A DNA stretch of 59,360 nt from Planctomycetales bacterium (GCA_005239725.1 SBBM01000038.1:1-59360); one strand, 5' to 3'; counted from the first letter of the stretch, positions 4,474-30,974 are shown. Notes: a model not told the origin generated them from the letters alone. Program-made: numbers and translations.

Positions 4474-4478
4474 ATAAT

Positions 4479-6345: not shown

Positions 6346-6349
6346 ATAC

Positions 6350-7021: not shown

Positions 7022-7026
7022 CGGAC

Positions 7027-8169: not shown

Positions 8170-8189
8170 ATGGCATTGTGTGCAAAAAA

Positions 8190-8870: not shown

Positions 8871-9034
8871 TTAATTTCTCCTTTTTTATCAAAACTTTAA
8901 CTGCCGGGAAACGGACTATCCCCATAAAGGCAGCGGCTTTCTTCTCTTCAGCATTAATCAATTTTTCCTCAATTTTTGCATGTACGATTTATATCCACAA
9001 TCAAATTATTATAAAAATTATCCATAGTCGTTTC

Positions 9035-11087: not shown

Positions 11088-11093
11088 CTTTTT

Positions 11094-14072: not shown

Positions 14073-15931
14073 ACGCCGTTATCTATCTTAATATTTTTAA
14101 ACTGCAGATTGTATAATAGCCGGTAAGTCGGAGACTTTCCTAGAAGCTCCTGGTGTGTCCCTATCCCTTCAACCGCCCCGTTCCGCAAAACAACGATCTT
14201 ATGCGCGTGAAGAATCGTAGATAGCCTATGGGCAATCACAATAGCTGTGGCATTTTCCAGTATTTTCTCTATGGCAGACTGAACCTGCCTCTCTGATTCG
14301 CTGTCAAGCGAACTTGTCGCCTCATCAAGGATTAATATATGAGGATTAGCCACGACTGCCCTGGCGATGGCAATGCGCTGGCATTGCCCTCCGGAAAGGA
14401 GCACGCCCCTTTCCCCAACTACAGTGTCATAGCCGGCCGGTAAACTGGTTATAAAACTATGTATATTGGCTATTTCCGCTGCTTTTAGAACATCCGGATC
14501 CGATAAATATTCCCTTCCGTAACGGATATTATTCCGGATCGTATCATTAAAAAGAATGCTTTGCTGGGGTACGACCCCGAAAATCCTACGGTAGCTGTCT
14601 TGTCTTATCCGCCTTAAGTCAACTCCATCAATAGAAATCACACCCTCAGTAGGGTCATAAAACCTCAGGATTAAATCCACCAAGGTGGATTTCCCGGCGC
14701 CGCTCGGGCCGACAATAGCGACAATCTCTCCCTTTCTTACCTCAAAAGAAACACTATCCAGGACCGGGCCATTCCCATAGGAAAAAGATGCATTGTCTAA
14801 CAACAGACTATCTTTAAAATCACTCTTGTCCTCTTTTCCGTCTACAACCTTCGGCTTAAGCCGTAGTAATTCGTCAATCCTGGCGTATGACGCCAATAGC
14901 GCCTGTATCCACGACACATTAACGGCAAGTTTGTTTATGGGATTTATCAGAAGCTGGCCGACAAAAATAAACATGGCAAAACCCTCTACCGTAAGGTTCC
15001 CGTGCATTAATTGCTGAGCGGCGATAAGGACAATGCCGACCATGGCAAAGGCGTCCAAAATAGACCGCGTCGGCTCCTGAAGGTTTTTAACCTTACCTGC
15101 TTTCAGTTCGGCACCAACTACCCCGTCAATCCCTTTTTCCAGCTTTTTGATCTCATACTTCTCGCCCCCGAATGATTTTATCACTCTTACAGAAGTAAAA
15201 ACTTCATGGAGCATATTTGAAAACTCCGCGGCCTTATCAAGCAGCATGCGGGTGGTACTGCTTAATGGCCGTTTAATAAGCTCCGTCAGGCCGAACTGCG
15301 CCAAAATCAGCCCGAATGCAACAAAAGTCAATACGACATTGGTGCTGAATAAATAAGTGCTGTATATTATTATCAGGATACTATGGTAAAACAGACTCCG
15401 CACTAACGGCCCCACGCCATTAGCCGTATTTTTGGCATCTTGCATGATACGCGACATCAAATCACCGGTCTTTTGATGATTAAAAAATACCATATTCAAA
15501 GAAAGGATGTGATGGGCTATATCCATTTGTATTAATTTTATGGCGCGGGTCTCAATGGAAAGCGACAAAAGGAATCCTGCGTAATTAATAATAGAGGAAA
15601 GGGCTACTAACAGCATATAAATGACGGTCAGGATAAGCAGGGAATTCCATTTATCATGCGAAAATGAGGAGATAACCCCCATTACCCGGCCACCAATGTG
15701 GTTAAGGTCAAGTGAACCTGCCATCGATTGGGTGCCTGCAACATCATGCTGGCCTACAACAATATTCATTATTCCCGCCAATACTACCGGCTGGCTTGCT
15801 GCAATAAAATTTGCCACAAGAGTAACGGGAATAAGTAAAATTATTAGCCGGCGCAAGGGCCAGGCATACGTCTTTACAAGATACCCGAAAGAAACCTTAT
15901 TCTTAACTTTTCCGTTCATATGATTGCTCAT
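14069..15931 (-). CDS. ABC exporter, fused permease/ATPase (MsbA/PglK-type, probable lipid-linked glycan flippase)
   Basis: N-terminal transmembrane domain; GPSGAGKST Walker A, LSGGQ signature, ILDEATS Walker B. Confidence 0.9.
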   Translation of the reverse strand: MSNHMNGKVKNKVSFGYLVKTYAWPLRRLIILLIPVTLVANFIAASQPVVLAGIMNIVVGQHDVAGTQSMAGSLDLNHIGGRVMGVISSFSHDKWNSLLILTVIYMLLVALSSIINYAGFLLSLSIETRAIKLIQMDIAHHILSLNMVFFNHQKTGDLMSRIMQDAKNTANGVGPLVRSLFYHSILIIIYSTYLFSTNVVLTFVAFGLILAQFGLTELIKRPLSSTTRMLLDKAAEFSNMLHEVFTSVRVIKSFGGEKYEIKKLEKGIDGVVGAELKAGKVKNLQEPTRSILDAFAMVGIVLIAAQQLMHGNLTVEGFAMFIFVGQLLINPINKLAVNVSWIQALLASYARIDELLRLKPKVVDGKEDKSDFKDSLLLDNASFSYGNGPVLDSVSFEVRKGEIVAIVGPSGAGKSTLVDLILRFYDPTEGVISIDGVDLRRIRQDSYRRIFGVVPQQSILFNDTIRNNIRYGREYLSDPDVLKAAEIANIHSFITSLPAGYDTVVGERGVLLSGGQCQRIAIARAVVANPHILILDEATSSLDSESERQVQSAIEKILENATAIVIAHRLSTILHAHKIVVLRNGAVEGIGTHQELLGKSPTYRLLYNLQFKNIKIDNGV

Positions 15932-16275
15932 GTTTTTTGCGGATAAGAATCTCCTGATTCATCGGTATAAATAAAATCAAAGGTGTTGTCGCCAAAAGGC
16001 AAAGCTTCAACCTTATGTGTAGTAAATCCCTCGACCGCTATTCCTGTTTCCTTCGCCCTAAGAAGGACAATTTGGTTTGCCTCTTCGTTTGGCTCGACTC
16101 CAGAAACTATGCAATCTTTTTTATGCAATTCGACTGCAAACCCCTTCTTTCGGCAACTTCTTCGCTCCGGCGCATTGACACCCAATATTCCGGATCCCCT
16201 AACCCGACCTGCTTATAGGTGCGCCTCCAATAATCCTTTAAACGGTTTATAATTTTCTTCGGAATAAGCGCTCAT
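15928..16275 (-). pseudogene. Degraded class I methyltransferase
   Basis: A coupled ATG at 16275 reaches a stop after 20 codons. The remaining pieces lie in other frames, and one keeps SGVEPN...EALPFGDNTFDFIY. Motif I and the C-terminal half are missing. Confidence 0.7.
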
Positions 16276-16916
16276 AATTTATTCCGGTTCTTTCTGAACC
16301 CGGGATTCTTATGCATATCAGTCGCAGAGTTTCCATGCTTAACATAGTTATACAAGGGCACGGGAAGATGGTAGATCTTCTCATGTTCAATACGGCTGAA
16401 TAAATCCTTATCCTCAAAAATCCTCTTTTCATGATTGTAGGACCCTATCATCTCCAGATAAGAGGTGCGAAACATAAGCCCGCAGGCAATGCCGTTATCC
16501 TTAAATGATTCTTTGGTTATGATCCGCTCTTCGTTATCGGTTATAAAATAATCGCAGGATGCCCCGACATATTTGGGATTGAATTTAAGAAAATTATAAA
16601 GCATATACAAAAATGCCGGCTGCACATAATCGTCGGAATCTACGCGCACAAAATATTTTCCCCGGGAATTTGCCACCCCTATCTGGGCACTTGCCCCTAT
16701 GCCTAAATTTTTCTTATTCCTTATGACCTTTATTTCCCCTGCCTTTACGAACGTCTCAATGGCCTCAATGGAATCATCAGTGCTGGCATCGTCGACAACA
16801 ATAATCTCATAATACGACTTATTAAGGTCCTGGTTCAATAAAGACCTTATGCACCTGCGTATAAGTTTGCCGTAATTATAATTAACCACTATTACCGAAA
16901 TATCGATAAGCCTCAT
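16272..16916 (-). CDS. Small GT2 glycosyltransferase
   Basis: ISVIVVNYN, DDASTD and RVDSDD motifs. Confidence 0.88.
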   Translation of the reverse strand: MRLIDISVIVVNYNYGKLIRRCIRSLLNQDLNKSYYEIIVVDDASTDDSIEAIETFVKAGEIKVIRNKKNLGIGASAQIGVANSRGKYFVRVDSDDYVQPAFLYMLYNFLKFNPKYVGASCDYFITDNEERIITKESFKDNGIACGLMFRTSYLEMIGSYNHEKRIFEDKDLFSRIEHEKIYHLPVPLYNYVKHGNSATDMHKNPGFRKNRNKL

Positions 16917-18399
16917 TCCTCACTCTCCTTTTTTTTAACAACCCTCCATCGCTAATGCCGTCCTTCCTCCGTGAGCCATCGCCGCGGAAAAGGAAAAAAA
17001 GATGCCTCCATGAACTGCCCATAAAAGTAAAAAACAGCGATAAACTCCGGAAAAATACCAATATCCGGAATATCTGGCGCGGCCGCAAATAATAACGCCT
17101 GATAGCCAGCTTCCTCAAATCATTAATCTCATCTTTTGCTAAAGAAGTATGCCGGTAATCAATAGGCACATCGTGCGTTATATGGTTCCATTTATCCCAT
17201 TCATTATTCATTTCAAAATCTTTCTGATAATATTTCCGGAATATGGGGGTACCGGGATAAGGCATAAGGATATTAAACCCTGCCATTGTCGAATCAAGCT
17301 TAATAGCAAAATCAATGGTCTCCAAAATAGTCTGGCGCGTATCTTTGGGGTTGCCGATCATAAATGAATTAAGGTAATCTATCCCTACCTTTTTGCAATT
17401 CATACATGCCCGGTAAATATCTTCTTTTGAAACGTTCTTGCCTAGTTGTTTCAAAACTTCTGTATTTCCGCTTTCTATCCCGAATTGGATAAAAACGCAT
17501 CCCGCCTTTTTCATCATTTTTAATAATTCCACGTCCTGGCAATGGTCGGTGCGCGCGAATATAAACCAGGTAATCTTTATTTTCTCATCGATGATCCTCT
17601 GGCATATAAGGCGCGCCCTCTCCTGGTCAGCCATAAAATTATCATCAAGGATATGCAGGTGCCTTATCCCGTAAGTAGATGTGATATGGCGGATAAGGCC
17701 GAGGAAATAATCCACACTATGCGCCCTCAATTTCCTCCCGGTTACGGCGTTTGCGCAAAAAGTGCACGTTGCCGGGCACCCTCTGGAGGACATAACAAAA
17801 GTGCTATCCTCGCGTATACGGTAAACAACCGAAGGGGCGTATTCCTTTATGGGCAAAAGATGATAAGCCGGATAAGGGATGGCATCCAAATCTTCTATCA
17901 TCTCCCTCGGAGGATTCAATATTGTCTCTCCTGCCTGCCGATAACAGATACCCTTGATGCTGGAAAAATCCGTCCGTTTTTGACTTAAAAATTTCACCAG
18001 TTCAACAGTCGTAAATTCCCCTTCCCCGGAGATTACGAAATCTATTTCAGGAGTTAACTCCAATGATTCCCTGGGAAGGACGGTTACATGTGCTCCGCCC
18101 ACCAATATAGGTATGCCCGCAAAATTGCTTTTTAACTCCCGGGCGATCTTCTGTGCCGAATTAAATGTGGGAGTGACTGCGGTTAAGCCGAACAAATCAG
18201 GTCCGAATGCCTTTATTTCGCTGATCAATTCCGGTAGTGGCGCATTATGCAGGTTAGGGTCAAAAACCTTAACCTCGCACCCCTCCCTCTCCAATGCGGC
18301 CGCCACATAAAGTAGGCCCAAAGGAATAGAGGCGTCCTGCCTGATATTCAGTTTTTTGTAAATCAATAAATACGGAGGATTAATTAGGGCTATTTTCAT
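16882..18399 (-). CDS. Cobalamin-binding radical SAM protein
   Basis: KIALINPP, PLGLLYVAA, GGAHVT, GEGE and SRGCPATCTFC motifs. Confidence 0.92.
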   Translation of the reverse strand: MKIALINPPYLLIYKKLNIRQDASIPLGLLYVAAALEREGCEVKVFDPNLHNAPLPELISEIKAFGPDLFGLTAVTPTFNSAQKIARELKSNFAGIPILVGGAHVTVLPRESLELTPEIDFVISGEGEFTTVELVKFLSQKRTDFSSIKGICYRQAGETILNPPREMIEDLDAIPYPAYHLLPIKEYAPSVVYRIREDSTFVMSSRGCPATCTFCANAVTGRKLRAHSVDYFLGLIRHITSTYGIRHLHILDDNFMADQERARLICQRIIDEKIKITWFIFARTDHCQDVELLKMMKKAGCVFIQFGIESGNTEVLKQLGKNVSKEDIYRACMNCKKVGIDYLNSFMIGNPKDTRQTILETIDFAIKLDSTMAGFNILMPYPGTPIFRKYYQKDFEMNNEWDKWNHITHDVPIDYRHTSLAKDEINDLRKLAIRRYYLRPRQIFRILVFFRSLSLFFTFMGSSWRHLFFLFRGDGSRRKDGISDGGLLKKRRVRNEAYRYFGNSG

Positions 18400-20530
18400 G
18401 GGCTTGACTACTTTTTAATATTTGGTAAATATCAACATCGCTATTTGAATAAACTTTATACATTAATTCCTCATCAAATGACATAAGCCAGACATTTAAC
18501 TCCCTGCGTTTATCAACCAGGACATAAGATACATTAAATTTATCTCGCATTTCGATAAGTGCGCCTCTATCCTTTTTATCAAAAAATGAACTTAAAAGTA
18601 TTCGCCGGTCAGCAAAAGGGACATACGCGGGGTCTTGTTTATAAACATTGGCCCACCGATGAAATTGCGGGGTAGGAAACGTCCCTTCTAAAAAAAATCT
18701 TCGCTCAGAAAAAGCTGAATAATAAAAATATTTTTCCCGTTCCGAGAATTCCGTATAGTACCATGTTTTCTTTTCCTTCCATAAATCTTGCGTAAAATTT
18801 ACCGCTATTACCGCGTCACGGGGAGTATTTTCCCGCAGCCATCGCAAACCCTTGAACAAGCCTGCGGATAAAAGCGGTTTCTCTCCGTATCGCTTTACGT
18901 AATAATAACGGCTGACCGTAGGAAACGCACATTTCACAACGGTAGTAGTAAGCCCGGAAATAAGCAAAATCAAAACAATAAATTTTGCTGCCAAATTTTT
19001 ATGCGACTTAGAACCTATTTTAAACAACGCTGTTAAACCTTTAGTCGACATAATCGCCAGCGGAACGCTTCCATAACCAAGAAAACCCCATTCTCCTCCA
19101 TTGAGCGAGAATAGCATCGCAATAAAAAAAGAACCCAAATATAAGCTCATAAGCCAGACTTCTTCCGTATTAAGATTGAGCTTGCGGTAAATGATAAAAA
19201 GCATAAAGCCGAATATGGATAGCGGGGCATAACCGAATATAACAAAACCCGGCAAGCCTACTTTTACCAACCATAATAAACCAGGGAAATATTTATGCGC
19301 ATAATACATAGCAACAGAATTAATATCGATATCAAAGAGCAGCTTGAAGGGTGTAAACTTAACATAGTTTACATAAATTGACTGCGTATAACTTTTAGTA
19401 ATGACATACGTGACGCACATCAGGAGAAACAGGATAGCAATAACTTTATCTACATTATGCCGGATAAAGATTTGCCAAGCCAATATACCGGCTATTCCCA
19501 TAATTAATATAGGCATAAGAACGGACTTTGTGAAAGCAGATGCTGCGATCAACAATATTATAAGTGATATCTTTGCCATGCCGAAATCAGCGCTACCGCG
19601 AGTGGCTTCTGCAATCAGTACGATTAAAGCGACAAAGAAAACTATGCCCATAAGAAACCCTGGACTTTGAAAAGCAGACCAGAAAATGTAGTTAAAGAAA
19701 AGGTCATCGGCATAAAGCGCGGCTGACCCCATTTTTCTGGCGCTATTAAGGACGAATAATCCCGACAAACTGCCGATAAGCAAAACTAATGAAGCGGTCG
19801 CCACCCCTGTGAACTTGCCTATCAATTCTCTGCCTGCCCAACAAAGTACCATCGCCCATAAGAAATATAGTTCGAAGGGAAATAAACGCAACACCACCCT
19901 GCTCAGGTCTATGCCGGTTATGCTTGATGCCGTGGCGATATGAATATAAGGCAAGAAATAATACCGCATAGGTTCACCGGAAACGCTCGGATTTTGAAAA
20001 GGAAAATTATGCCACTTGACCTCACCGGCCAGGCTTAGATGCCACACCAAATCTTGATAATAAGTGACTCCCTGTGTCTCTGAAGGCAAATAGACCCCGG
20101 AAATATTGCAGAACTTTATCACCAAGATAACCCCGATGGAAATAATAATATAAGCCAGCATTTCACTATTCATAATCCTCTCTCTCTCTCTTACGTCCTT
20201 AAGCTTAGGGATTACGAAAGGAAACAGACAAAAGCCGATGAGCATCGTCCCGTAAAAAGTTATCCCCTGGCCGAGAAGGGGCCTAAATAAATATACCCAT
20301 CCCTCCAGAACATAACCCAATGCCCATCCAAGACAGAATTGCCTCAATGCAGTTCCGCGATCTTTTATCAAAACAAGATAAACAACCCAGCCCGGAAACA
20401 AGACATAGAAAAAGGAATAACTTAGATATTTAAAACAGTCAAAAAAAGTTATGCCTGATGTTACGGCAATAATCATAAAACCGCAAAGCGCCGATAAAAC
20501 AAGAATAACATTCTTTATTATATTACTCAT
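18380..20530 (-). CDS. Large polytopic membrane protein, probably a GT-C-fold transferase
   Basis: More than 12 hydrophobic segments. The first large loop has YQDLVWH...FPFQNPSVSGEPMRYY, and the soluble C-terminus has WLRENTPRDAVI...ERR, an architecture seen in GT-C-like proteins. Confidence 0.6.
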   Translation of the reverse strand: MSNIIKNVILVLSALCGFMIIAVTSGITFFDCFKYLSYSFFYVLFPGWVVYLVLIKDRGTALRQFCLGWALGYVLEGWVYLFRPLLGQGITFYGTMLIGFCLFPFVIPKLKDVRERERIMNSEMLAYIIISIGVILVIKFCNISGVYLPSETQGVTYYQDLVWHLSLAGEVKWHNFPFQNPSVSGEPMRYYFLPYIHIATASSITGIDLSRVVLRLFPFELYFLWAMVLCWAGRELIGKFTGVATASLVLLIGSLSGLFVLNSARKMGSAALYADDLFFNYIFWSAFQSPGFLMGIVFFVALIVLIAEATRGSADFGMAKISLIILLIAASAFTKSVLMPILIMGIAGILAWQIFIRHNVDKVIAILFLLMCVTYVITKSYTQSIYVNYVKFTPFKLLFDIDINSVAMYYAHKYFPGLLWLVKVGLPGFVIFGYAPLSIFGFMLFIIYRKLNLNTEEVWLMSLYLGSFFIAMLFSLNGGEWGFLGYGSVPLAIMSTKGLTALFKIGSKSHKNLAAKFIVLILLISGLTTTVVKCAFPTVSRYYYVKRYGEKPLLSAGLFKGLRWLRENTPRDAVIAVNFTQDLWKEKKTWYYTEFSEREKYFYYSAFSERRFFLEGTFPTPQFHRWANVYKQDPAYVPFADRRILLSSFFDKKDRGALIEMRDKFNVSYVLVDKRRELNVWLMSFDEELMYKVYSNSDVDIYQILKSSQAHENSPN

Positions 20531-21723
20531 AAATAACTCTTCCTGGAGATATACTTTAAACTTTTGCCTCTGACTACCCCTACCAAAAAAGAAAGCGGCT
20601 TATAGCGCGACATGGCGTTATTTATCCCGATATCTATCAGCGGACAAGTCTTACAAAGCGGTATCCCATCCCTGCCCTCCTTTAGATGCTGGCGGAATTT
20701 CTGGTAACCCTGGCTGTTCCATACTTTTTTAAACGACTCCTTTGATAAGTCTCCGAAAACAACCTGCCCGTCAAAATAAATACAACATGGATAAACTTTG
20801 CCATCCCAGGTGACCGAAGCCGTATAATAGGGGAAAAAACACGGACGGTCGCCTGCTATCGAATCTCTTATATCGGTAAATATGGTATTCAAATTCTTGC
20901 ATACCGAATTAAGTTTAAGCGCATTAGCATAATCAAAGGCCTCTTTCAAATATCTCTCATCTTCTCTGTTCAGGGAATTAGCCATTCTGCCTGCTTCGCC
21001 ATATGTATACATTTTTGTGAATGTAGGAGGGATACCGAATTCTCTAAGGCAAAACTTAAGCATATCCGTCGCTTCATGTATATTATCCTTATTCAAGGTC
21101 ATATTAAGGCCTACGATCGGGTAAATTGAATTCCTGCTTTTCTTTAATCCAATCAATGTTTTAATATTTCCAACCACTTTCTCAAAGTCTGTGCCGAAGC
21201 GCATTTTCTCCATAAGAATCTTCGTGCAGCTATCAAAGGAAACAAGTAGATGTGAAAGTTGGGCATCGATTAAACTTCGGCTAAGTTCCGCGGTTAAAAG
21301 CGTAGCATTGGTGGTTATGCGCACAACCATTTTCTTATTTCGCGCGTACCCCACCATATCTGCGATCCCTGGATGCAAAAGAGGTTCTCCGAATTGCGCC
21401 AAAGTAAGAAATACGGGATTTACCTCATCAATTATCTTCCGGTATAAAGCAAAATCCATATTCCCTCTATCCCTGGTTAATAAATCTGTCCTGGGGCAGA
21501 TCGCGCACCTTAAATTACATTTTGCACTCGACTCTATGCACAGGGCAATCGGATAAAACGACTTCTTTTCGGAGCGGATAATAGATATGCCATTGGATAC
21601 ACACTTCAATAAAAATTTAAAGCTAAAAGGTATCTCCTGGAGGACAGCCTGATATGCAACACTATCCCTGGATAACTTCTTCAAGATATAGTCCGCAACA
21701 GGATTCGTAATTTTATTCTTCAC
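20527..21723 (-). CDS. Radical SAM protein with SPASM/twitch domain
   Basis: CNLRCAIC and GEPLLHP motifs; C-terminal CFFPY...DGKVYPCC...CKTC. Confidence 0.9.
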   Translation of the reverse strand: MKNKITNPVADYILKKLSRDSVAYQAVLQEIPFSFKFLLKCVSNGISIIRSEKKSFYPIALCIESSAKCNLRCAICPRTDLLTRDRGNMDFALYRKIIDEVNPVFLTLAQFGEPLLHPGIADMVGYARNKKMVVRITTNATLLTAELSRSLIDAQLSHLLVSFDSCTKILMEKMRFGTDFEKVVGNIKTLIGLKKSRNSIYPIVGLNMTLNKDNIHEATDMLKFCLREFGIPPTFTKMYTYGEAGRMANSLNREDERYLKEAFDYANALKLNSVCKNLNTIFTDIRDSIAGDRPCFFPYYTASVTWDGKVYPCCIYFDGQVVFGDLSKESFKKVWNSQGYQKFRQHLKEGRDGIPLCKTCPLIDIGINNAMSRYKPLSFLVGVVRGKSLKYISRKSYL

Positions 21724-22456
21724 TTATTTTATTTACTTTCCTGCCAATATAAGAAAATGAATAAGCAATATTGTGGGCATTCCGGCTATTTGCTAAAAGT
21801 AAGTCCATATATTTTAAAGGAAAAAATATAATGATAAAAAGTTGGGATAAAACAGAATAAACCGCCTTACTGTTAAAAGAAAACAAAATTGCCAGATACT
21901 CTTTTAGCATACAAACGAGTGCAGAAGTCGGGCCTCCTGAAGGCAGACACTCTACCATGGCAAATCCCGAACTATCCCATAATTTAACAAATCCTTCCAT
22001 CGTAAAGCGATAATAATCTTTAGGATTGCCGTGATAACTCTGCATAAAAGGCACGGTAGAATAAACTACCCCTCCGTCTTTTAATACACGGTAAATTTCC
22101 GATATCATCTTCTGACTGTCTTCGACATGTTCGATAACGTACTCAAGAATGACTAAATCGAAAGACCCGTCCAGAAACGGCATGTTCCTGGCGTCGGCAA
22201 CAATATCTACGTTCGCAAAGGGTTCGATATCCAAATTAACACATTTATTCCCAAATCTTTTTGTCCCTGAACCAAGATTCAAAATCCCGGCATTTTCAGG
22301 CAAGCTTTTCAAGAGCCGTTTGCGGGCCCCATTAGAAATAAAAGCGGGATTAAAAATAAATTCAAAGACCGAGGCGAGCTTCGGGCTACGCCGAATAAAA
22401 TTCTTCCATCGCACCCTTAGATCGCCGGGATTTAGCTGATCATCCGTATTTTTCAT
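21713..22456 (-). CDS. Class I SAM-dependent methyltransferase
   Basis: ILNLGSG, YVIEHV and HGNPKDYYRFT motifs. Confidence 0.87.
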   Translation of the reverse strand: MKNTDDQLNPGDLRVRWKNFIRRSPKLASVFEFIFNPAFISNGARKRLLKSLPENAGILNLGSGTKRFGNKCVNLDIEPFANVDIVADARNMPFLDGSFDLVILEYVIEHVEDSQKMISEIYRVLKDGGVVYSTVPFMQSYHGNPKDYYRFTMEGFVKLWDSSGFAMVECLPSGGPTSALVCMLKEYLAILFSFNSKAVYSVLSQLFIIIFFPLKYMDLLLANSRNAHNIAYSFSYIGRKVNKISEE

Positions 22457-23877
22457 TAGTCAATTATCCTGTATTCGCTAATTCTCTTTTTAAGTTCCTC
22501 CCAAATGCCCTTCATGGGCATGCCTGCCAAAAGGCTATCAGTAATAAATCTACCCATATCCAAACAGTGATCGGCATTGTTATAATTGTAGAATCCTATC
22601 CGCCCCGAAAGAAGCAGGTTATCGACTGTCTGTAATTCATCATAAATCATCCCCAGGTCCGTTTTATAACCTACGCCATATCTGGGGTAAAACCTTGGGA
22701 AACGCCTCACCAGCGAATCTTGCACCCATTCGGGTTTAATCAATCCTATTTTTACTAAATCTACGGCACACTTATCCGCGAGCATCTTATCAGACTGTGT
22801 ATACAAAATCCCGGACTCGTAATCCGTAAAATCGCAGCATAAAACAGTTTTGCCATTAGGAACCATATCCCTATCCATATTCTTCTGCTCAAAAATACGG
22901 CTGAAAACAATATCTTTGCCGGGAAAGAATATCCAATGGTCGTCGATAACCTTCTCTTTATCCAAAAATAAATAAACCAAAATAACCGAACGATATTCTA
23001 ATTTATTGACCAGGTCCCCGGCATTTTCAATATTCTTCCCGGAGCCTTCAGGAAAAATACTCAATAACTGGTCAAGATGGATTGCCGAAATAACAATATC
23101 CGCTTCTACCGTCTTCTTGTTTCCGTTTACATTTAACAGGACCTTGCGAATACTGCCATTTTGCAGTTGAAATGATTCGGCCTTCGTTTCAGTTATGACC
23201 GAACCGCCATTCTTTACTATTTCCCGCGCCATTTTATCGGCAAGCGCACCAAAACCGCCTTTGGGATAATAAAAAAACCGGGCATCCGTGGTTGCCTTTT
23301 CTTTTTTTAGGCCCAGCGCCCTCGCTAAAACATCCAGTATATTAGCGCTGGGAATCCGCGTTTTGGCTATATCGGCAGAAAGTGTTTCAGGGCTACCCCA
23401 AACCTTATCCGCCAAAGGCTTAAAAACAAGTTCATAAAGATTATACCCGAATTTACTTACCACAAAATCTTCATAGCTTTCGATTTTTCTTTTTCGGCCT
23501 GTTCTGGCGACCATGCCCTTAAGTGTACTAATCCCGCATTGAAAAAGGTTTTTATGACCCATTTTTAATACCAGATCAGCCATACTTATCGGATAATTAA
23601 GATATTGCCCGAAAAGATAAATACCATTTTTCTTTTTGTGCTGTATAGCCTCTTCACCCAGTAACATCTTAAATTCAGCGAGTATGCCGGGAATAACCGA
23701 ATAAACTTTATGTGCGCCATAATCCAAAAGAAAATCTTTGTGCCGGAATGTCCCGCAAACACCTCCCACCGCAGATTCTTTCTCAACAACCGTAACATCA
23801 AACTTACCTGTTCGAGACAACATAAACCCGGCAGAAAGCCCACCCAAACCACCGCCCAATATCACTACCCTCTTCAC
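22456..23877 (-). CDS. FAD-dependent oxidoreductase (UDP-galactopyranose mutase/protoporphyrinogen oxidase-like fold)
   Basis: GGGLGGLSAG, EKESAVGG, DYGAH and GRIGFYNYNNADH motifs. Confidence 0.82.
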   Translation of the reverse strand: MKRVVILGGGLGGLSAGFMLSRTGKFDVTVVEKESAVGGVCGTFRHKDFLLDYGAHKVYSVIPGILAEFKMLLGEEAIQHKKKNGIYLFGQYLNYPISMADLVLKMGHKNLFQCGISTLKGMVARTGRKRKIESYEDFVVSKFGYNLYELVFKPLADKVWGSPETLSADIAKTRIPSANILDVLARALGLKKEKATTDARFFYYPKGGFGALADKMAREIVKNGGSVITETKAESFQLQNGSIRKVLLNVNGNKKTVEADIVISAIHLDQLLSIFPEGSGKNIENAGDLVNKLEYRSVILVYLFLDKEKVIDDHWIFFPGKDIVFSRIFEQKNMDRDMVPNGKTVLCCDFTDYESGILYTQSDKMLADKCAVDLVKIGLIKPEWVQDSLVRRFPRFYPRYGVGYKTDLGMIYDELQTVDNLLLSGRIGFYNYNNADHCLDMGRFITDSLLAGMPMKGIWEELKKRISEYRIID

Positions 23878-23881
23878 TAAC

Positions 23882-25315
23882 TCACCTTTCTTTTATCTTC
23901 GGCCTGAATAATATTAAAAATAATCTTCTAAATACATATTTAATATCTTTTAATTTAAGCAGGCCTATGATTTTATAAATCCGCTGAGGGTTTAAATAAT
24001 AAAAGAAAATTACCCTCACTTGAATTTTCTTCAATTCCTTCAGGGTCATGCCGTTAGGCGAATAAGTTATTTCTCCGCTCGAAAAAGAGGGCAAAAAATC
24101 ATCTCTAATCTCGGCTTTTTGAACTAATTCGTCGTAGAGCGAAGTCCCTGGCAATGGTGTAAAATTCCCGAAAGAGGCAAAATCAAGACCTATTTTATCT
24201 GGGAACCTGCCGGTATTGTAATTATCCTTTACTGACTCATTAGGAAAACCTAAAATAAAAAACCCCACTGTCTGAAATCCCGCTCTTTTAGCCAAGGCTA
24301 CTTTTTCCTTGATCAGCTCGATGGTTATGCCTTTAGAAATATATTTTAAGGTATCTGCAGAAGCAGTTTCTATTCCGAAACCAAGAGAATAAAATCCAAC
24401 CTTTTTCATAACCGAAAGCATTTCTTCATCCACAGTATCAAGGCGTATCCCGTTGGGCATAGCTATCGATATATCCAGGCTCTCATTCGCTATCCCCTGG
24501 CAAATATCGCGTACATGCTTCTTGCTGAACGTAAAGTTATCATCCATAATATGTATTTCTCTGGCCCCGTAATTAACAACCAAATCTTTAATTTCCGCAA
24601 CAACATGCGCGGGGCTCCGGCTGCGTATCTTTTTTCCGGTATTTAAACCCGAGGCGCAAAAGCGGCAAAGAAACGGGCAGCCCCTTGTTGTTATAATTGT
24701 ACCGACGGGTGAGCGCCGGTGAAAAAGCCCCATAGGGCTGCCGCCCCTAAGATAACCATCTACGTTTATAATATTTTTATAATCAATGAAATCATACTCA
24801 TCAATATCGGGATTAAATTTATTCGCGTTAACACAGGTTATGCCGTTATCTCTATAAATCAAGCCCGCGATACGATTGATATCTTCCTTTAGCCGGCCGC
24901 TCTGCAAAGACTCTACTAAGGCCGTTAAACCCAATTCCCCATCGCTAATTATGCCAAAATCGGCAGATGGTAAATCCCGGAATATTTTCTCGCGTATGGC
25001 ATTTACATGAGGCCCTCCCACTACCAAACAAACAGACTTTCCTAATTCGGATTTTATGCGGTTTAAAACTTCGCGTGTAACCAGGACAGCATGCGAAAAT
25101 ACAGTTATCCCTAAAACATCGGGTTTCTCTTCTTTAATCCGCCTGACAAACTTATCCACGCTATGATAACCCAAAACATCACTATCAATAACAACAACTT
25201 CGGCATCAGGAATATGTTTTTTTATATAGCTGCCTATATAACCCAAGCCTATTGGGAGTGTCAAAATCATAACGCTTTCCTGCGGCATAGGTGGTTTGGC
25301 TAAGACAACCTTCAT
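23882..25315 (-). CDS. Cobalamin-binding radical SAM protein
   Basis: PIGLGYIG, GGPHVN, TRGCPFLCRFC and DDNF motifs. Confidence 0.92.
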   Translation of the reverse strand: MKVVLAKPPMPQESVMILTLPIGLGYIGSYIKKHIPDAEVVVIDSDVLGYHSVDKFVRRIKEEKPDVLGITVFSHAVLVTREVLNRIKSELGKSVCLVVGGPHVNAIREKIFRDLPSADFGIISDGELGLTALVESLQSGRLKEDINRIAGLIYRDNGITCVNANKFNPDIDEYDFIDYKNIINVDGYLRGGSPMGLFHRRSPVGTIITTRGCPFLCRFCASGLNTGKKIRSRSPAHVVAEIKDLVVNYGAREIHIMDDNFTFSKKHVRDICQGIANESLDISIAMPNGIRLDTVDEEMLSVMKKVGFYSLGFGIETASADTLKYISKGITIELIKEKVALAKRAGFQTVGFFILGFPNESVKDNYNTGRFPDKIGLDFASFGNFTPLPGTSLYDELVQKAEIRDDFLPSFSSGEITYSPNGMTLKELKKIQVRVIFFYYLNPQRIYKIIGLLKLKDIKYVFRRLFLILFRPKIKER

Positions 25316-26229
25316 GTTTCTCTCTTTTTCGCGATAACCAATGTCTGGCCGACCCAGTAGGGAATATTCAAATCCCCCACGCTAAGCATGCGGCTGATAT
25401 TTTCTCCGATAGCGCCGATAGCCCCGACATAAGCTTTTGAACGGCTAAAAATATAACTTAGCGCTAACTGTTGATAATGAGGTTTAATCTTTAAAACTGA
25501 AAAACCGGAATCTCGCAGCATTTTAACCATGGTTTGGCGGGTAAAATAATATAAATGCACCGACAAAAGAAAAACCCACCTTCGTCCCATCATTCGCGCA
25601 ATCCAGCTTCCTATGTCCGGATAATTAACAACCAATAAACCGTTCTTTTTCAAAACCCTGCGGCATTCGCATAAAACGCTTTTCGGATCTGGCGTATGCT
25701 CAAGAACATCCCAAAGAGTCGCCACATCAAAGAAATCCTGCGGATATTTTTGCTCAAAAATCGTCCCCGGCTTAATGTCGACAGCGTAATGTTTCTTTCC
25801 CCACTCGCAAAGCCAACGGTTAGGTTCACAGCCATGAATATCCCATCCTCTTTGCTTGGCCACGTGCAAAAAGGAACCACCGGCCGTCCCAATATCCAGG
25901 ATTTTACCCGGATGGGGATAGAACCTCATAATCCCATCCAAACACTTACCGAAAGTAACTTCCCGCCCCTTTACCTGCGAAACAAAAGTCTCATCACTCC
26001 CGTTTCTATACGCATCCAGAATAATATTATGTTTTAAGCGGGGATTAATATAGAGAAAACCACAATTTTTGCAAGCAACCAATTGATCAATTAATAGTTC
26101 ATCACCAGATGACCTGAACTTTGCGGCATAATCTTTATCCTTCTCCAAGTCATACCTTGGTTCAAAGATTACTTTATATTCGGAATTCCCGCAAAGATTG
26201 CAATTAACTTTTTCGAAGTTATCGCTCAT
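25312..26229 (-). CDS. Class I methyltransferase with N-terminal Zn ribbon
   Basis: CNLCG...CKNCG; ILDIGTAGG, WDVLEH and HLYYF motifs. Confidence 0.88.
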   Translation of the reverse strand: MSDNFEKVNCNLCGNSEYKVIFEPRYDLEKDKDYAAKFRSSGDELLIDQLVACKNCGFLYINPRLKHNIILDAYRNGSDETFVSQVKGREVTFGKCLDGIMRFYPHPGKILDIGTAGGSFLHVAKQRGWDIHGCEPNRWLCEWGKKHYAVDIKPGTIFEQKYPQDFFDVATLWDVLEHTPDPKSVLCECRRVLKKNGLLVVNYPDIGSWIARMMGRRWVFLLSVHLYYFTRQTMVKMLRDSGFSVLKIKPHYQQLALSYIFSRSKAYVGAIGAIGENISRMLSVGDLNIPYWVGQTLVIAKKRET

Positions 26230-27164
26230 TATATTTCTTTTTCTTTTGAGACAGCAAAATAGTTGTTCTTTTTGATAAGCGCGCTAAGTTCTGCAAATCT
26301 GGTATTAACCGCGCTTAAAATTAATCCTGTGGCCAGAAACAAAAAGGCGGCAACTCCCAAGATAATCCCGCTGATAAGAAAAACATTCAGCAACCTTGTT
26401 AAAGTATACGCATAAATTATTAATAAAAAAGAACAGGCGCCCAATACAATAAAGATAAAAGTAAAGAAATGGTGCGGCTTATGATCCCGTAAAAGCATCG
26501 CCATGGTTACCATAATACGGTAGCCATCAGAAAAAGAACTTAATTTCGAAAAACTCCCTTGAGGACGGCACCTATACATAATGGGCACTTCTTTAACAAT
26601 ATATCCATGCTCCAGGGTCTGCAAAGCAAGTTCTGTTTCAATCTCAAAACCCATGGTAATCAAGGGTATATTTTTAGCAACATCTTTAGTAAAAACGCGG
26701 TACCCAGAAAGCACATCTTTATATTTCGTCCGGAAAATTAAATTAAGCACGCTGGTGATAAACCAATTGCCAAATTGATGTAGCGGACGGATTGAATTAT
26801 GATTATTCTCTCCCAGGCGATTGCCTACCACCATGTCAGCCTGGTCTTTCAAAAGAGGCTCGATTAACTTATGCACTTCCTCCGCAGGATAAGTGTCATC
26901 GCCATCAACCATAACATAAATATCCGCGTCCAGCTTTTCAAAAATAGACCTCACTACCCATCCTTTACCCTGTTTCTTTTCATGAATGATTTTTGCGCCC
27001 TCGGCAACAGCAATTTCTTGCGTCCTGTCAGTGGAATTATTATCAAAAACTACGATCTCTGCCTGCGGCAGTTCTCTTTGAAAACCATTAATTACCCTCT
27101 TTATGCTCATTTCCTCATTGTAGCAAGGGATAGCCACTACAATTTTCTTATCCTTATAGCTCAT
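26229..27164 (-). CDS. DPM1/GtrB-like polyprenyl-phosphate glycosyltransferase (GT2) with two C-terminal TM helices
   Basis: IPCYNEE, DNNSTD, QGKG, VDGDDTY, SGYR and FEIETE motifs. Confidence 0.88.
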   Translation of the reverse strand: MSYKDKKIVVAIPCYNEEMSIKRVINGFQRELPQAEIVVFDNNSTDRTQEIAVAEGAKIIHEKKQGKGWVVRSIFEKLDADIYVMVDGDDTYPAEEVHKLIEPLLKDQADMVVGNRLGENNHNSIRPLHQFGNWFITSVLNLIFRTKYKDVLSGYRVFTKDVAKNIPLITMGFEIETELALQTLEHGYIVKEVPIMYRCRPQGSFSKLSSFSDGYRIMVTMAMLLRDHKPHHFFTFIFIVLGACSFLLIIYAYTLTRLLNVFLISGIILGVAAFLFLATGLILSAVNTRFAELSALIKKNNYFAVSKEKEI

Positions 27165-28651
27165 CCTGCCCCCTTCTGAAGTAAAAGACTCATTTGAAAC
27201 GTCCGGTAAAGAACCATCTCCATTTTTGTCTTAAACGACTTTATAAGAAAACGCAAAACCTGAGTAATAATCTTCGGAAAATGAAACAAAATCTTGTTAA
27301 AAAGAAAAACAGCATACAACCCCATCCTCTGGGAATTCAAAAATGAATAATCCCTCCTCCAGACTGGAGAGAAATTTAACTGCGAAAAATTATAGTATCC
27401 TTTAAACTCTTTAAACAATTCTGAACCCGGAACCGGAGTAATTATAAAGACCGCGATTTCATCCGCCCCTGCACCCGCCATCTCCTTTGCTATTTTCCGG
27501 GTAGCCCTTATCTCATCTTTGCCTTCTCCCGGAAAACCCAGCACAAAGCAAACCTGCGAAAAAATCTTCAGACTGTTCATTTTCTTAACCATATTTACCG
27601 CGTGATTAAGGTTAAAAGGCTTATCCATTAATTCTAAAACTTTTTCCGAGCCGCTTTCCGGAGATATCGAAATATAGTTGCATCCGGATTTCGCCATTAA
27701 CTCAAGCGTTTCTTCATTCTTGATTGTCTCCACTTTTGTCCCTGAAACAAGCTTCCAAATTACCTTAAGCCCCCGCCTTAGGATTTCCCGGCAGATCTCG
27801 CGGGTGCGTTCATCTAAAATAGTGGGATTAACATCCTCAACGTGAAACTCGCTTACACCGTAATACCTCTGCATATATTCCATTTCATCAACAATATTCT
27901 TGGCTGTCCTTGCAAGCCATTTATGGGCAGAAAAAAATGGCATAAGACAAAAGCGGCAGCCGTATACGCAACCCCGGGAGGTTAAGATCGGCAGGTATTT
28001 TTTTGTCTCAAAAGGGCCATGTCCATATTTCAAGTTCCAGTAGTTATCCAAAGGAAAATATTCCCAAGCCGGGAACCCGAGCGCGTCAAGATTGTCAATT
28101 CGCTTTTCGGGATACCGGTAGTAGATAATACCGCCTCTTTTGTACCCTAAACCATCGATATCCTCAAGGGTGCCTTTGCCTTCGATTGCCCTGATTAAAT
28201 CCAATCCCCTTATTTCCGGTTCGCCGGTTAAAATAAAATCTGCGCCATTATTATACAAATCTTCCTGCACCTCTTTTAATGAATAAGATGTAACTGCCTG
28301 GGTGTTCTCCATAATCACGGCCTGTGCCTGGGGGAAACGCGCCTTTACCGCTTTTAAAATATTCGTCAAAGCTAAATAATATGTAACATTACTGGCATAA
28401 ATAAAGATTATCCCGGCATTCACAGGAATGCGGTCAACAACTTCCTGCGTATTTAATCCCTGTATTAAAAAGTTTTCTACAACTGCGGCTTTTTTAGGAT
28501 TATCTCCGAAAGCATCTATAACCTTAAAGTCATACTCTGCTTTCTTTAAAGCTGCGGCAAAATAAGCCAGGCCGATAGGCATATAGACCACGCCTGTTGT
28601 AAATAAATCACTGCGCTGGGCTATAAGATTAGGATTAATCAGAACAATCAT
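27161..28651 (-). CDS. Cobalamin-binding radical SAM protein
   Basis: MIVLINPN, PIGLAYFAA, GEPE and SRGCVYGCRFC motifs. Start moved to the ATGA overlap at 28651. Confidence 0.9.
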   Translation of the reverse strand: MIVLINPNLIAQRSDLFTTGVVYMPIGLAYFAAALKKAEYDFKVIDAFGDNPKKAAVVENFLIQGLNTQEVVDRIPVNAGIIFIYASNVTYYLALTNILKAVKARFPQAQAVIMENTQAVTSYSLKEVQEDLYNNGADFILTGEPEIRGLDLIRAIEGKGTLEDIDGLGYKRGGIIYYRYPEKRIDNLDALGFPAWEYFPLDNYWNLKYGHGPFETKKYLPILTSRGCVYGCRFCLMPFFSAHKWLARTAKNIVDEMEYMQRYYGVSEFHVEDVNPTILDERTREICREILRRGLKVIWKLVSGTKVETIKNEETLELMAKSGCNYISISPESGSEKVLELMDKPFNLNHAVNMVKKMNSLKIFSQVCFVLGFPGEGKDEIRATRKIAKEMAGAGADEIAVFIITPVPGSELFKEFKGYYNFSQLNFSPVWRRDYSFLNSQRMGLYAVFLFNKILFHFPKIITQVLRFLIKSFKTKMEMVLYRTFQMSLLLQKGAG

Positions 28652-29361
28652 CTGGCGGCAATTTTCTCCATTATCCGCGCATACTTCGATAAATCCGAAA
28701 GTTCCTGCGGAGTCATGCTGCATACATGGTCAGGGCCGACAAGCCCCTTATTAAGCGTGAAGTGTTTTTCTATAATATTTGCGCCCCTTGCTACGGCAAT
28801 TAAGGACATCTCTATTCCGATTGTATGGTCACTAAAACCTTGGTAGGGTAATCCAGCAAAAGAGGCCGGCAATTCAATATCAGAATATTCACACGGATAC
28901 TTAGGCACACAGTACAAATACCTGGCATTTTTATCCTTATAAGGGACACCCTTGCCTTTCCAGAATCCCAGCGAAATAAAAGTCTCTTTACCAGTCTTTA
29001 GTATCTCCCGGCAAAGCTCTTTATCCTGAACAGAACGGCTGGCTATTTTATGCCGTCTGACCCCTAAAGATTCAATCCATCCAAATCTCTCTAAATCAAA
29101 AACCGAAGCCATAAATTCAATCCCTTCTTCGTCAGACCATCTCTTTAAAACTTTTGCCTGCGCAAAATTGAACTGGACGCTTAAGGCGAACTCATAATTC
29201 TTCTTGTCCGGATAAGTACCTTTTGGCCCGAAAATTTTATCCGGGTCATAAAATTGGAATTTGGCGATATCTGCCCCGCAAAGTTTAGCCTGCCTTATAA
29301 GCTCATGCGCCAGGTTAATATTCCCATTGTGATTAATGCCGATTTCCGCAATTATAATCAT
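28648..29361 (-). CDS. Short NeuB-family ulosonic acid synthase lacking the C-terminal SAF/antifreeze-like domain
   Basis: IAEIGINHNG, AKFQ, GFSDHT and IIEKHFTL motifs; the protein ends at 237 aa. Confidence 0.88.
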   Translation of the reverse strand: MIIIAEIGINHNGNINLAHELIRQAKLCGADIAKFQFYDPDKIFGPKGTYPDKKNYEFALSVQFNFAQAKVLKRWSDEEGIEFMASVFDLERFGWIESLGVRRHKIASRSVQDKELCREILKTGKETFISLGFWKGKGVPYKDKNARYLYCVPKYPCEYSDIELPASFAGLPYQGFSDHTIGIEMSLIAVARGANIIEKHFTLNKGLVGPDHVCSMTPQELSDLSKYARIMEKIAAR

Positions 29362-30026
29362 ATTAAACCTTCCTTCCTCCTGGCTTTATAAATATCTTCA
29401 GCGATTTTAAAATCCTCTTCCGTGTCGATATCGATTAATTCCACCCTATCATTTATTTCAATGAATTCAACCTCTTTCCAATCCCAATACCTGCCGTTTT
29501 TAAAAAAATAGTCCTTATTGAAAAAGTAAAGCGCATGGGCAAATTCATATACAGGCTCAATGGCCTTTGTATTGATTGTCTTCATGGATAAATCAAAATT
29601 TAAGGGCTTGCGATCGGCATTTATAAAAAAGTTTCTCCGCATTACTACCGAAAATGCCGGGTGATATCCGCCATCTCTGCATGCAGAAAGAAAGTTTTTG
29701 ATTGTTTCCACCTTCAAAAATGGCAAGCAGCCATTAACAATAAGCAAATATTCAAAATCTACTGCCTTTAGAAAAGAAAGTATATCTGTTATAGGGCCGT
29801 CTATAGTTATGGATTTCTTATCCCGCTTAATAAACCTTACTCCGGCCTCCCTGCTTTTCTCCTCAAATTCAGGTTCAAATCCGGCAAAAAATGCCTCATC
29901 CTTAAAATATGCCAATTTTTTTAAAACGATGTTCGTCAACGTAGTATCGCCGAAAGGCCTCAGCATCTTATTCGGGCACCTCTGACTCTGTTTCCTGGCA
30001 AAAGAAAATACACCTATTTTATTCAT
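29358..30026 (-). CDS. Divergent CMP-ulosonate synthetase (NeuA-like cytidylyltransferase)
   Basis: ARKQSQRCPNK, CLPFL and IDIDTEEDF motifs. Confidence 0.8.
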   Translation of the reverse strand: MNKIGVFSFARKQSQRCPNKMLRPFGDTTLTNIVLKKLAYFKDEAFFAGFEPEFEEKSREAGVRFIKRDKKSITIDGPITDILSFLKAVDFEYLLIVNGCLPFLKVETIKNFLSACRDGGYHPAFSVVMRRNFFINADRKPLNFDLSMKTINTKAIEPVYEFAHALYFFNKDYFFKNGRYWDWKEVEFIEINDRVELIDIDTEEDFKIAEDIYKARRKEGLI

Positions 30027-30966: not shown

Positions 30967-30974
30967 AAATTTTT

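Follow-up and report, generated by a model that had tools for sequence, protein, structure and literature searches.

Three-component glycosylation systems consist of a lipid-linked donor synthase, a flippase and a GT-C glycosyltransferase (PMC11127046). In the GtrA/GtrB/Gtr(type) systems of Shigella and Salmonella, a DPM1-like GT2 enzyme makes a polyprenyl-phosphate monosaccharide that a GT-C enzyme uses outside, and a conserved donor part, GtrA/B, is combined with an exchangeable serotype-specific Gtr (PMC11127046). Here we examine a block of nine genes at positions 16882-28651 of a 59,360-nucleotide stretch of DNA from a Planctomycetales bacterium (GCA_005239725.1, SBBM01000038.1:1-59360), the whole of which is called the window below. 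The block probably encodes a cassette for extracytoplasmic glycosylation, of the Gtr/Arn/CsbB-YfhO type, in which the donor half is unusually elaborate. Like the Gtr systems, it contains a DPM1-like GT2 and a protein of GT-C fold, and related cassettes in Omnitrophota mirror the combination of a conserved donor part with an exchangeable GT-C enzyme. It differs from them in that it has no GtrA-, SMR- or MATE-type flippase gene, that its GT-C family has no Pfam or NCBIfam model, and that five to six tailoring enzymes (three or four radical S-adenosylmethionine (SAM) enzymes, two methyltransferases and a flavoenzyme) are added between synthase and transferase.

Other described systems share parts of this arrangement. 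In the ArnA-D/ArnC/ArnT pathway and in the decaprenyl-phosphate-arabinose pathway (DprE1/E2, AftA/Emb), the sugar is tailored partly on the lipid and a GT-C enzyme transfers it. ArnD acts on the lipid-linked sugar. DprE1/E2 epimerise the lipid-linked sugar (PMC11127046). The cassette differs in tailoring with radical SAM enzymes and an enzyme like UDP-galactopyranose mutase (UGM), which are unrelated to the deformylase or to DprE1/E2, and its 716-residue membrane protein resembles ArnT and AftA in fold only, with no sequence-level similarity. In the CsbB/YfhO and GacI/GacL systems, which serve teichoic-acid and rhamnan glycosylation, a GtrB-type GT2 is paired with a GT-C enzyme; we know of no radical SAM or flavoenzyme tailoring in either. 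Sister cassettes in Omnitrophota end in a YfhO-like protein, with a similarity below the Pfam cut-off. The GT66 enzymes STT3, AglB and PglB, together with the Dol-P-hexose synthase AglJ, come close in another way, in that they supply the best fold match, C-terminal domain included, and the best model for the GT2. Unlike them, the 716-residue protein has neither a WWDYG motif nor an STT3 Pfam match, carries four extra N-terminal helices and stands in an operon context that suggests a single-sugar donor. The sugars of the known systems compared here are plain (glucose, GlcNAc, galactose, ribose, arabinose) or lightly tailored.

Results

The 716-residue membrane protein has a predicted GT-C fold

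The preliminary description of the block had staked its proposal on a GT-C fold in the 716-residue protein encoded at 18380-20530, and such a fold was found with an AlphaFold2 model, Foldseek and VIA-align. The model was built with a family alignment of 60 sequences and has a predicted local distance difference test score (pLDDT) of 90.5 and a predicted template modelling score of 0.93. Foldseek gave 27 matches in the PDB at E<=1e-3; those listed are GT-C enzymes only (STT3/AglB/PglB, DPY19, AftA, ArnT and Pmt4), and AftD, ALG12, ALG9 and AftB matched just above 1e-3. VIA-align Z scores ranged from 12 to 21 over 340-494 aligned residues for STT3, AglB, DPY19, ArnT, PglB, AftA/B/D, PMT, Emb and ALG9/12. 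Yeast Stt3 reached 21.2 (463 residues aligned), AglB 18.2, DPY19 16.8, ArnT 15.4, PglB 15.2 and AftA 14.6. ArnT, AftA and PglB, the three enzymes with which a comparison had been suggested, all match in fold, but STT3 and AglB are closest, and the likeness extends to their C-terminal globular domain. The highest Foldseek TM-score (0.54) belongs to AftA, the sole top match that also covers the four N-terminal helices.

The model consists of four extra N-terminal helices (residues 1-110), a GT-C core from about residue 113 and a globular domain at 552-705, which aligns with the globular domain of AglB-S2 at a Z score of 8.5 and a root-mean-square deviation of 2.4 Å over 111 residues (VIA-align). 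Because the alignments of most solved GT-C chains begin at model residues 111-125, we take the helix at 121-143 as the first core helix and residues 144-208, which contain two short helices, as the first core loop. Residues 1-110 are reached by the AftA and Emb alignments only. The idea of a fused GtrA-like flippase in this part found no support, as the N-terminal 115 residues gave no GtrA match in Pfam at E<=1; the four helices may simply belong to a larger GT-C core, into which the AftA and Emb alignments extend.

Neither Pfam nor NCBIfam has a model that matches the protein, and scanning its parts one by one at E<=1 brought up no family either; a weak DUF6798 match was seen in the C-terminal part. 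Since the family profile found nothing below E 0.15 among PDB sequences, the kinship with known GT-C enzymes is visible by fold only. The family comprises 795 representative clusters at E<=1e-3, 380 at 1e-10 and 82 at 1e-30, and extends over Actinomycetota, Bacillota, Acidobacteriota, Omnitrophota and one archaeon. The closest homologues, P0001 and P0002, are 71% and 38% identical, and 29 of the 30 nearest protein-atlas clusters are unnamed 'hypothetical proteins'.

An acidic residue had been expected in the loop with the sequence YQDLVWH, and D160 is indeed Asp in 98% of the 60 family members. E170 is acidic in 86% of them, R215 and K335 are basic in 98%, and R/H358 is conserved too, together with several charged positions of the C-terminal domain (R566, E609, R610, R611, E615, R642 and D673). 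By the model and the aligned ranges, D160 belongs to the first loop of the GT-C core, which is placed outside the cell on the positive-inside rule because the loops at 55-63 and 108-121 are rich in Lys and Arg. Asp160 is the predicted catalytic residue.

Layout of the gene block

ORF calls, Pfam and NCBIfam confirmed the nine minus-strand open reading frames (ORFs) at 16882-28651 and their order of transcription. All nine genes named in the preliminary description are present, but its list left out a short soluble GT2 that overlaps the last of them. The features are as follows, in the direction of transcription.

27161-28651, minus strand: radical SAM enzyme A (rSAM-A), first cassette gene; class-B-like architecture; ORF readable from 28723
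26229-27164, minus strand: GtrB/DPM1/AglJ-type GT2, predicted polyprenyl-phosphate sugar synthase (PF00535, 8.1e-23)
25312-26229, minus strand: class I SAM methyltransferase (Zn-MT; Methyltransf_23, 9.4e-25) with an N-terminal four-Cys zinc-ribbon-like motif
23882-25315, minus strand: B12-binding radical SAM protein (PF02310, 4.4e-14; PF04055, 4.4e-24)
22456-23877, minus strand: UGM-like flavoenzyme of PRK07208 type (Amino_oxidase, 1.4e-14; NAD_binding_8)
21713-22456, minus strand: class I SAM methyltransferase (MT; Methyltransf_11, 2.4e-14) with a hydrophobic C-terminal segment
20527-21723, minus strand: radical SAM/SPASM enzyme (PF13186, 2.8e-18; PF04055, 2.8e-12)
18380-20530, minus strand: 716-residue GT-C-fold protein of an unnamed family (no Pfam or NCBIfam match; fold from the model)
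20039-20059, minus strand: codons Y158-H164 (YQDLVWH) of the same protein, including the predicted catalytic Asp160 (conservation and aligned ranges)
16882-18399, minus strand: B12-binding radical SAM enzyme B (rSAM-B; PF02310, 7.4e-26; PF04055, 3.4e-22)
16272-16916, minus strand: short soluble GT2 of 214 residues (PF00535, 2.2e-31); overlaps the last cassette gene; outside the conserved core
14069-15931, minus strand: MsbA/PglK-type ABC exporter, candidate flippase (ABC_membrane and ABC_tran), two genes downstream

From 28723 down to 16272, neighbouring genes lie at most 4 nucleotides apart and most pairs overlap by 1-35 nucleotides. The CxxxCxxC motif is kept in all four radical SAM proteins. 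The block had been called self-contained. Within the window no boundary is visible, since it is embedded in about 47 glycan genes on the same (minus) strand, from position 1 to about 50200, beyond which lie housekeeping genes (tyrosyl-tRNA synthetase, S1, IspH and others); only comparison with other genomes shows it to be self-contained. An Rfam scan of the whole window, which would include a cobalamin riboswitch or similar element, gave no matches.

The cassette as a separate operon in a second genome

The proposal also depended on the co-occurrence of these genes elsewhere. Such co-occurrence was found in a stand-alone operon on an Omnitrophota contig (L001), and the front part of the cassette is conserved in six more genomes. 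The locus scan, with one genome per species and a family alignment of 10 sequences, yielded 34 loci with relatives of the 716-residue protein. In L001, eight of the nine genes, at 33-68% identity, form one operon in the order rSAM-A, GT2, Zn-MT, flavoenzyme, rSAM-B, MT, SPASM enzyme and GT-C protein. rSAM-B, 68% identical, sits there between the flavoenzyme and the MT; the MT and the SPASM enzyme are 57% and 51% identical. The Zn-MT follows the GT2 in L001, L083-L086 and L088 (50-59% identity), and homologues of rSAM-A, 46-54% identical, open the cassette in L001 and L083-L088.

Upstream of the L001 operon lie two small ORFs of no known family on the other strand, and downstream are LexA, an ORF of no known family, UvrD, an exonuclease, SPOR and LpoB proteins, and phosphoenolpyruvate carboxykinase. 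An ORF comparison found none of the window's other glycan genes in L001, and because the operon stands alone without them, we regard the block as a self-contained unit. What the window adds to this unit is the radical SAM gene at 23882, the ABC exporter and the short GT2. The first of these has as its sole L001 match the rSAM-B homologue, at 28% identity; the short GT2, which has no hydrophobic helix, is without a counterpart in the L001 operon; and the exporter is also not present there and is thus a candidate flippase in the window only. It scored 393.7 bits with the MsbA model and 214.4 bits with the PglK model of NCBIfam, both below the cut-offs.

A metagenome locus, L035, is 99.995% identical to L001 and hence the same DNA, so that the two count as one independent instance; beyond this duplicate, the metagenome scan returned only four short fragments. 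The 716-residue protein was found in none of 40 relatives, none of 400 sampled genomes of the phylum (E<=1e-10) and none of 150 genomes of the order to which the L001 genome belongs. The IspH proteins of the two carrier genomes share 28% identity, compared with 33-68% for the cassette proteins, and this single-gene comparison weakly suggests that the cassette may have spread horizontally.

A conserved front and an exchangeable end

The flavoenzyme family was searched in 400 other sampled genomes of the phylum, with matches in 74 genomes at E<=1e-40 and in nine at E<=1e-100, and every ORF of the ten best loci, up to about 20 kb each, was compared with the window proteins. Five of the ten (L083-L086 and L088) carry rSAM-A, GT2, Zn-MT and flavoenzyme in the order of the window at 41-59% identity, and L087, cut by a contig end, has a partial rSAM-A, the Zn-MT and the flavoenzyme. 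The flavoenzyme copies of the related cassettes are 41-44% identical. Four of the six loci with this front end in a different large membrane protein, which is YfhO-like in three and of no family in the other. Thus, the donor-making front is conserved in several Omnitrophota genomes, and the final GT-C-like protein is swapped between unrelated families.

In L085, L086 and L088, the flavoenzyme is followed by a small methyltransferase (its ORF was not called in L085) and a SPASM enzyme; SPASM homologues are 37-40% identical in L085-L088. The terminal protein of the three loci is polytopic, 712-730 residues long, with sub-threshold YfhO matches. The top 20 Foldseek rows for its model are all GT-C enzymes, but since all have E>1e-3 and the model has a pLDDT of 63, its assignment to the GT-C class is provisional. 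None of 137 ORFs, the sister membrane proteins included, matched the hidden Markov model (HMM) of the 716-residue family at E<=10, and hhalign gave 2.7%. In L083 the front is followed by a methyltransferase like that at 21713 (42%), a B12-radical SAM and two membrane proteins of no family, one of them nearest to DUF6798-bearing clusters by language-model features. L089-L091 have a flavoenzyme at 38% identity (blastp) and combine a B12-radical SAM, Zn-MT and flavoenzyme with PMT_2-type or unclassified polytopic proteins. A DPM1-like GT2 without membrane helices is present in L089 and L091, the GT2 is missing in L090, and L089 has a Wzx-like gene. L092 is without a Zn-MT. Flavoenzyme homologues of 26-30% identity were rejected as cassette members, because 19 of 20 such small loci had no Zn-MT neighbour and the contexts were different.

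Directly upstream of two of the YfhO-type cassettes lie genes for homologous large proteins (2687-5719 and 15-2579 in L086, 1479-5459 in L088). These are 1010-1326 residues long, 49% identical over the first 340 residues, and have signal-peptide-like hydrophobic N-termini; homologues occur on other contigs of the window's genome, G000 (C24, about 5898-11102, and C63). They are candidate acceptors.

Distant relatives and GtrB-type synthases

An HMM was made from eight GtrB-type GT2s, six of them from the tested loci, and hits were required to be shorter than 450 residues and to have a hydrophobic helix after residue 200. A GT2 of this type lies within about 20 kb in 21 of 33 distant loci of the 716-residue family (23-28% identical), or in 15 of 27 when the seed loci are left out. 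The window's 1.46-Mb genome contains five such ORFs, two of them at >=100 bits, which corresponds to a background of roughly 3-7% per 20 kb. The carriers with such a GT2 belong to Thermoleophilia, Syntrophomonadaceae, other Bacillota, Acidobacteriota and a Methanobacteriota archaeon. A GtrB-type GT2 in the same operon and near these relatives suggests that the 716-residue protein may use a polyprenyl-phosphate-linked donor.

Sugar-pathway genes neighbour the distant homologues throughout. L003, L006 and L025 (Syntrophomonadaceae) have a GT2, an ATP-grasp ligase, a DegT aminotransferase and LPG_synthase_TM, and L017 and L021 (Solirubrobacterales) a GT2, a Zn-methyltransferase, an epimerase and a split transketolase. 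GT2-methyltransferase pairs occur in L017, L021 and L011, and in L022 a 93-bit relative of the MT at 21713 directly follows the GT-C homologue. NeuB and cytidylyltransferase genes lie near the homologue in L007, L010, L012 and L014, L007 being the Methanobacteriota archaeon with a nonulosonic acid set.

Predicted donor-side enzymes

The GT2 had been described as GtrB/DPM1-like, and its layout agrees, with the catalytic domain followed by two C-terminal membrane helices (hydrophobic stretches at 233-251 and 261-279). The nearest solved structure is the Pyrococcus dolichyl-phosphate-mannose synthase (5mlz, 2e-15), with ArnC at 8e-4. The protein contains a DGDD motif, and its best NCBIfam model is AglJ (TIGR04182; 1.2e-69, 234.9 bits against a cut-off of 325, residues 8-281).

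rSAM-A is likely to start at M25 (28651), since the L001 homologue aligns from residue 25. For the label of a B12-radical SAM enzyme given to it the signals are mixed: no B12-binding domain is found by Pfam, but NCBIfam models of B12-radical SAM enzymes span the N-terminus below their cut-offs, the models for the Sden_1168 P-methyltransferase and for BchE aligning from residue 26-46. The nearest solved structures include 9ccb (7.8e-13), the glutamine C-methyltransferase QCMT, and AprD4. The radical SAM proteins at 16882 and 23882 both have an N-terminal B12-binding domain and a CxxxCxxC core, and are predicted to bind cobalamin. For rSAM-B (16882) the nearest solved structures are AprD4 (1.3e-21) and TokK (1.9e-14).

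MoeK5 acts on a lipid-phospho-linked sugar. The cobalamin-dependent radical SAM class consists mostly of C-methyltransferases, including the sugar-modifying GenK, GenD1 and MoeK5, and also comprises P-methylases and ring-contracting enzymes (PMC12931638, a 2026 review). Like the cassette enzymes at 16882 and 23882, GenK, GenD1 and MoeK5 are class-B radical SAMs; they alkylate unactivated sugar carbons (PMC12931638). They belong to secondary-metabolite pathways, in contrast to the envelope glycosylation proposed here. Because no equivalog cut-off is reached, methylation by the cassette's B12-radical SAMs would be only the most common possibility.

The flavoenzyme had been called mutase-like, which is a fair label, because UGMs are its nearest solved relatives. 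Eukaryote-type UGMs matched at 2.4e-11, with 4dsg aligned over residues 3-449, and stretches of the form G-x-H, F-x-R, RRF..YP and GR.G..Y..N.DH line up, several of which we take to be active-site motifs of the UGMs. All model scores are below the cut-offs (GLF PF03275, 6.2e-4 and 20.0 against 26.3 bits; TIGR00031, 34.3 against 303.75; NF005548, 287.7 against 389 bits), and the enzyme is at most a putative UDP-galactopyranose mutase.

Of the remaining enzymes, the Zn-MT has an N-terminal pair of CxxC motifs (CNLCG...CKNCG). The SPASM enzyme combines a radical SAM core with a C-terminal auxiliary-cluster domain (PF04055 and PF13186); its nearest solved relative is BtrN (8.2e-16), followed more weakly by cytosylglucuronate decarboxylase and DesII, and all three act on sugar-like substrates. 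The MT has a hydrophobic stretch at 196-220, and the hydrophobic C-terminal segments of this protein and of rSAM-B hint that both may work at the membrane.

Discussion

A proposed pathway

The reading of the block as a lipid-linked-sugar and GT-C system, which the preliminary description put forward, is supported by the GT-C fold, by D160, by the layout of the GT2 and by the co-occurrence of the genes elsewhere. We propose that the DPM1/GtrB-type GT2 attaches a single sugar to polyprenyl phosphate on the inner side of the membrane, as its family, topology and context suggest. The UGM-like flavoenzyme, the Zn-MT and rSAM-A, its invariant partners, would remodel the sugar before loading or on the lipid, together with the variable partners, namely the second methyltransferase, the SPASM enzyme and one or two B12-radical SAMs. 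In chemical terms, a pyranose would likely be turned into a furanose and methylated at O or C, with one oxidation or rearrangement by a radical route. The lipid-linked sugar would then be flipped, and the 716-residue GT-C protein would transfer it to an envelope acceptor with Asp160 in its first outside loop. Lipopolysaccharide is a plausible acceptor because the window's genome has LpxC and seven Wzy_C-family matches; a protein acceptor is also conceivable.

Several points weigh against this pathway. Neither the window's cassette nor the L001/L035 operon has an ORF for a flippase of the GtrA, SMR, MATE or Wzx type, and the same GT-C family was found within the cassette in only one other genome. 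The putative equivalence of Asp160 to the catalytic Asp of solved GT-C enzymes draws on aligned ranges and conservation, and the background rate for GtrB-type GT2s comes from a single genome. Pfam recognises Radical_SAM in rSAM-A (8.4e-20) with no B12-binding match, and AprD4-like enzymes, to which it is also related, do not bind cobalamin (PMC12931638). All family assignments of the tailoring enzymes fall below the curated equivalog cut-offs, so that no substrate can be named. Finally, the best structural match of the membrane protein is to the oligosaccharyltransferases, which move whole glycans and not single sugars.

Alternative explanations

The last point leads to the alternative that the 716-residue protein is itself oligosaccharyltransferase-like and moves a whole lipid-linked glycan to a protein or a different acceptor, in the manner of AglJ and AglB in haloarchaea. 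The glycan would be built by the glycosyltransferases of the 50-kb locus on a primer from the AglJ-like GT2. The fold ranking, with STT3 and AglB at Z 18-21, and the AglB-like C-terminal domain (Z 8.5) are in keeping with such a function, as are AglJ as the best NCBIfam model for the GT2 and the window's neighbouring GT1/GT2 genes, pseudaminic acid genes and PglK/MsbA-like exporter; the NeuB and cytidylyltransferase genes beside distant members in L007, L010, L012 and L014 could be read in the same way. However, a WWDYG-like motif (WW[DE][YWF]G) was present in none of 150 family representatives, compared with eight of eight archaeal AglB control sequences, and PF02516 (STT3) matched neither the 716-residue protein nor any of the 60 members. 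An hhalign comparison with the archaeal AglB alignment, a small and atypical control of eight sequences, gave a probability of 28%. On these grounds, and because its profile matches no PDB sequence, we keep the protein out of GT66; it is a GT-C of a new, unnamed family with an STT3-like fold. The L001 operon, moreover, has a single glycosyltransferase besides the GT-C protein, and sister cassettes replace the latter with YfhO-like or PMT_2-type enzymes. Both of these families use monosaccharide donors. We therefore consider transfer of a whole glycan unlikely.

A second alternative is that the cassette makes a finished glycolipid or modified lipid and that the membrane protein is an exporter, polymerase or scaffold. 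rSAM-B scored best against HpnJ (221.5 bits, cut-off 577.6), HpnR and ladderane-lipid models, all below the cut-offs, the N-terminus of the flavoenzyme resembles CrtI/HpnE-type lipid desaturases, and no acceptor is known for the sugar. The resemblance to desaturases is confined to the dinucleotide-binding start, whereas the alignment with UGMs spans the flavoenzyme from one end to the other. A connection to hopanoids by way of the HpnJ-like radical SAM is not supported, since a search of the genome, 80% complete, turned up no squalene-hopene cyclase. The fold matches are all to glycosyltransferases, the conserved Asp lies in the expected loop, and the cassette variants end in other GT-C-like families. 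A lipid product thus seems improbable to us.

That the nine genes are mere neighbours serving unrelated steps, such as tailoring of pseudaminic acid or of an O-antigen backbone, might be suspected from the continuous run of overlapping or abutting genes with no block boundary on either side, from the other B12-radical SAMs (11756, 39303) and methyltransferases scattered through the locus, and from the many class-B radical SAM paralogues in the genome, but it is largely refuted and very hard to credit, as eight of the nine recur in L001 without the surrounding genes and the four-gene front stands in the same order in five genomes, with three of the four in a contig-cut sixth.

What would be new

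The logic of the proposed glycosylation cassette is already known from the three-component systems, ArnC/ArnT, the decaprenyl-phosphate-arabinose route and CsbB/YfhO. No description of the cassette was found in the literature searched, outside which lie subscription-only papers, and an Omnitrophota genome preprint, as far as its accessible part goes, has radical SAM and glycosyltransferase domains in other contexts only (10.64898/2026.06.07.730766). New to that literature are the radical-SAM-rich tailoring tied to a GtrB-type synthase and the recurring four-gene core, and, from modelling, a predicted fold and catalytic candidate for a large unnamed GT-C family.

One could envision a more far-reaching scenario. 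A polyprenyl-phosphate hexose would be made furanose-type or rearranged, radically C-alkylated and methylated on the carrier or just before it, and a new GT-C enzyme would deliver it; the donor core would be portable and would plug into at least three unrelated GT-C families of Omnitrophota. As part of the same scenario, the new GT-C family would share ancestry with the oligosaccharyltransferases and would have lost the sequon-reading motif. We put this combination forward tentatively, as a possibility that may well fail in one part or another. If the pathway proposed further above is right, it already points to envelope sugars of a new class and to a radical chemistry that acts on a lipid-linked carbohydrate. 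The four-gene core (rSAM-A, GT2, Zn-MT and flavoenzyme) offers a bioinformatic handle for finding more such systems, and because Omnitrophota are uncultured, bioinformatics of this kind is for now the only way to learn about their surface chemistry.

Surroundings of the cassette

Directly upstream of the cassette, at 28648-33640, are genes for a short NeuB paralogue of 237 residues that lacks a SAF domain, an atypical cytidylyltransferase (222 residues), a 315-residue protein with a sub-threshold MptE/Maf-like match, and two 444-residue proteins of no family, one with faint similarity to BFO_1060 and Glyphos_transf. None of these genes lies beside the L001 operon. Further upstream is a pseudaminic acid set, comprising PseI (33637-34668), a PseG-PseH fusion (34674-36089), a PseC-like (40673-41839) and a PseB-like gene (41818-42795). 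A WbuX/HisH/HisF-like amidotransferase trio is located at 36092-38578, and a B12-radical SAM gene (39303-40676) is wedged between the aminotransferase and a cytidylyltransferase.

Besides the five in the window, the 1.46-Mb genome has at least seven further class-B radical SAM paralogues (contigs C39, C40, C21, C37 and C17). Contigs C17 and C21 carry Wzy_C-family matches too. This distribution suggests that radical SAM tailoring of glycans may be a general habit of the organism.

Inside the glycan locus, a 113-residue winged-helix/MarR-like regulator is encoded at 43673-44014 (HTH_24, 2.9e-12), and the genes around it, at 43719-44297, are loosely spaced. At the upstream edge, an ATPase with AAA_14 and DUF4143 domains (48975-50204) is flanked by a ManC-like gene and an epimerase. 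An 85-residue ORF (15928-16185), located between the ABC exporter and the short GT2, partially matches class I methyltransferases (profile positions 12-70 of 97) and has the appearance of a remnant or of a methyltransferase-like protein of very small size. The downstream end of the locus is occupied by a polytopic membrane protein of at least 340 residues (3-1022), which runs off the window and has no Pfam or NCBIfam match; it could be a polymerase, ligase or flippase.

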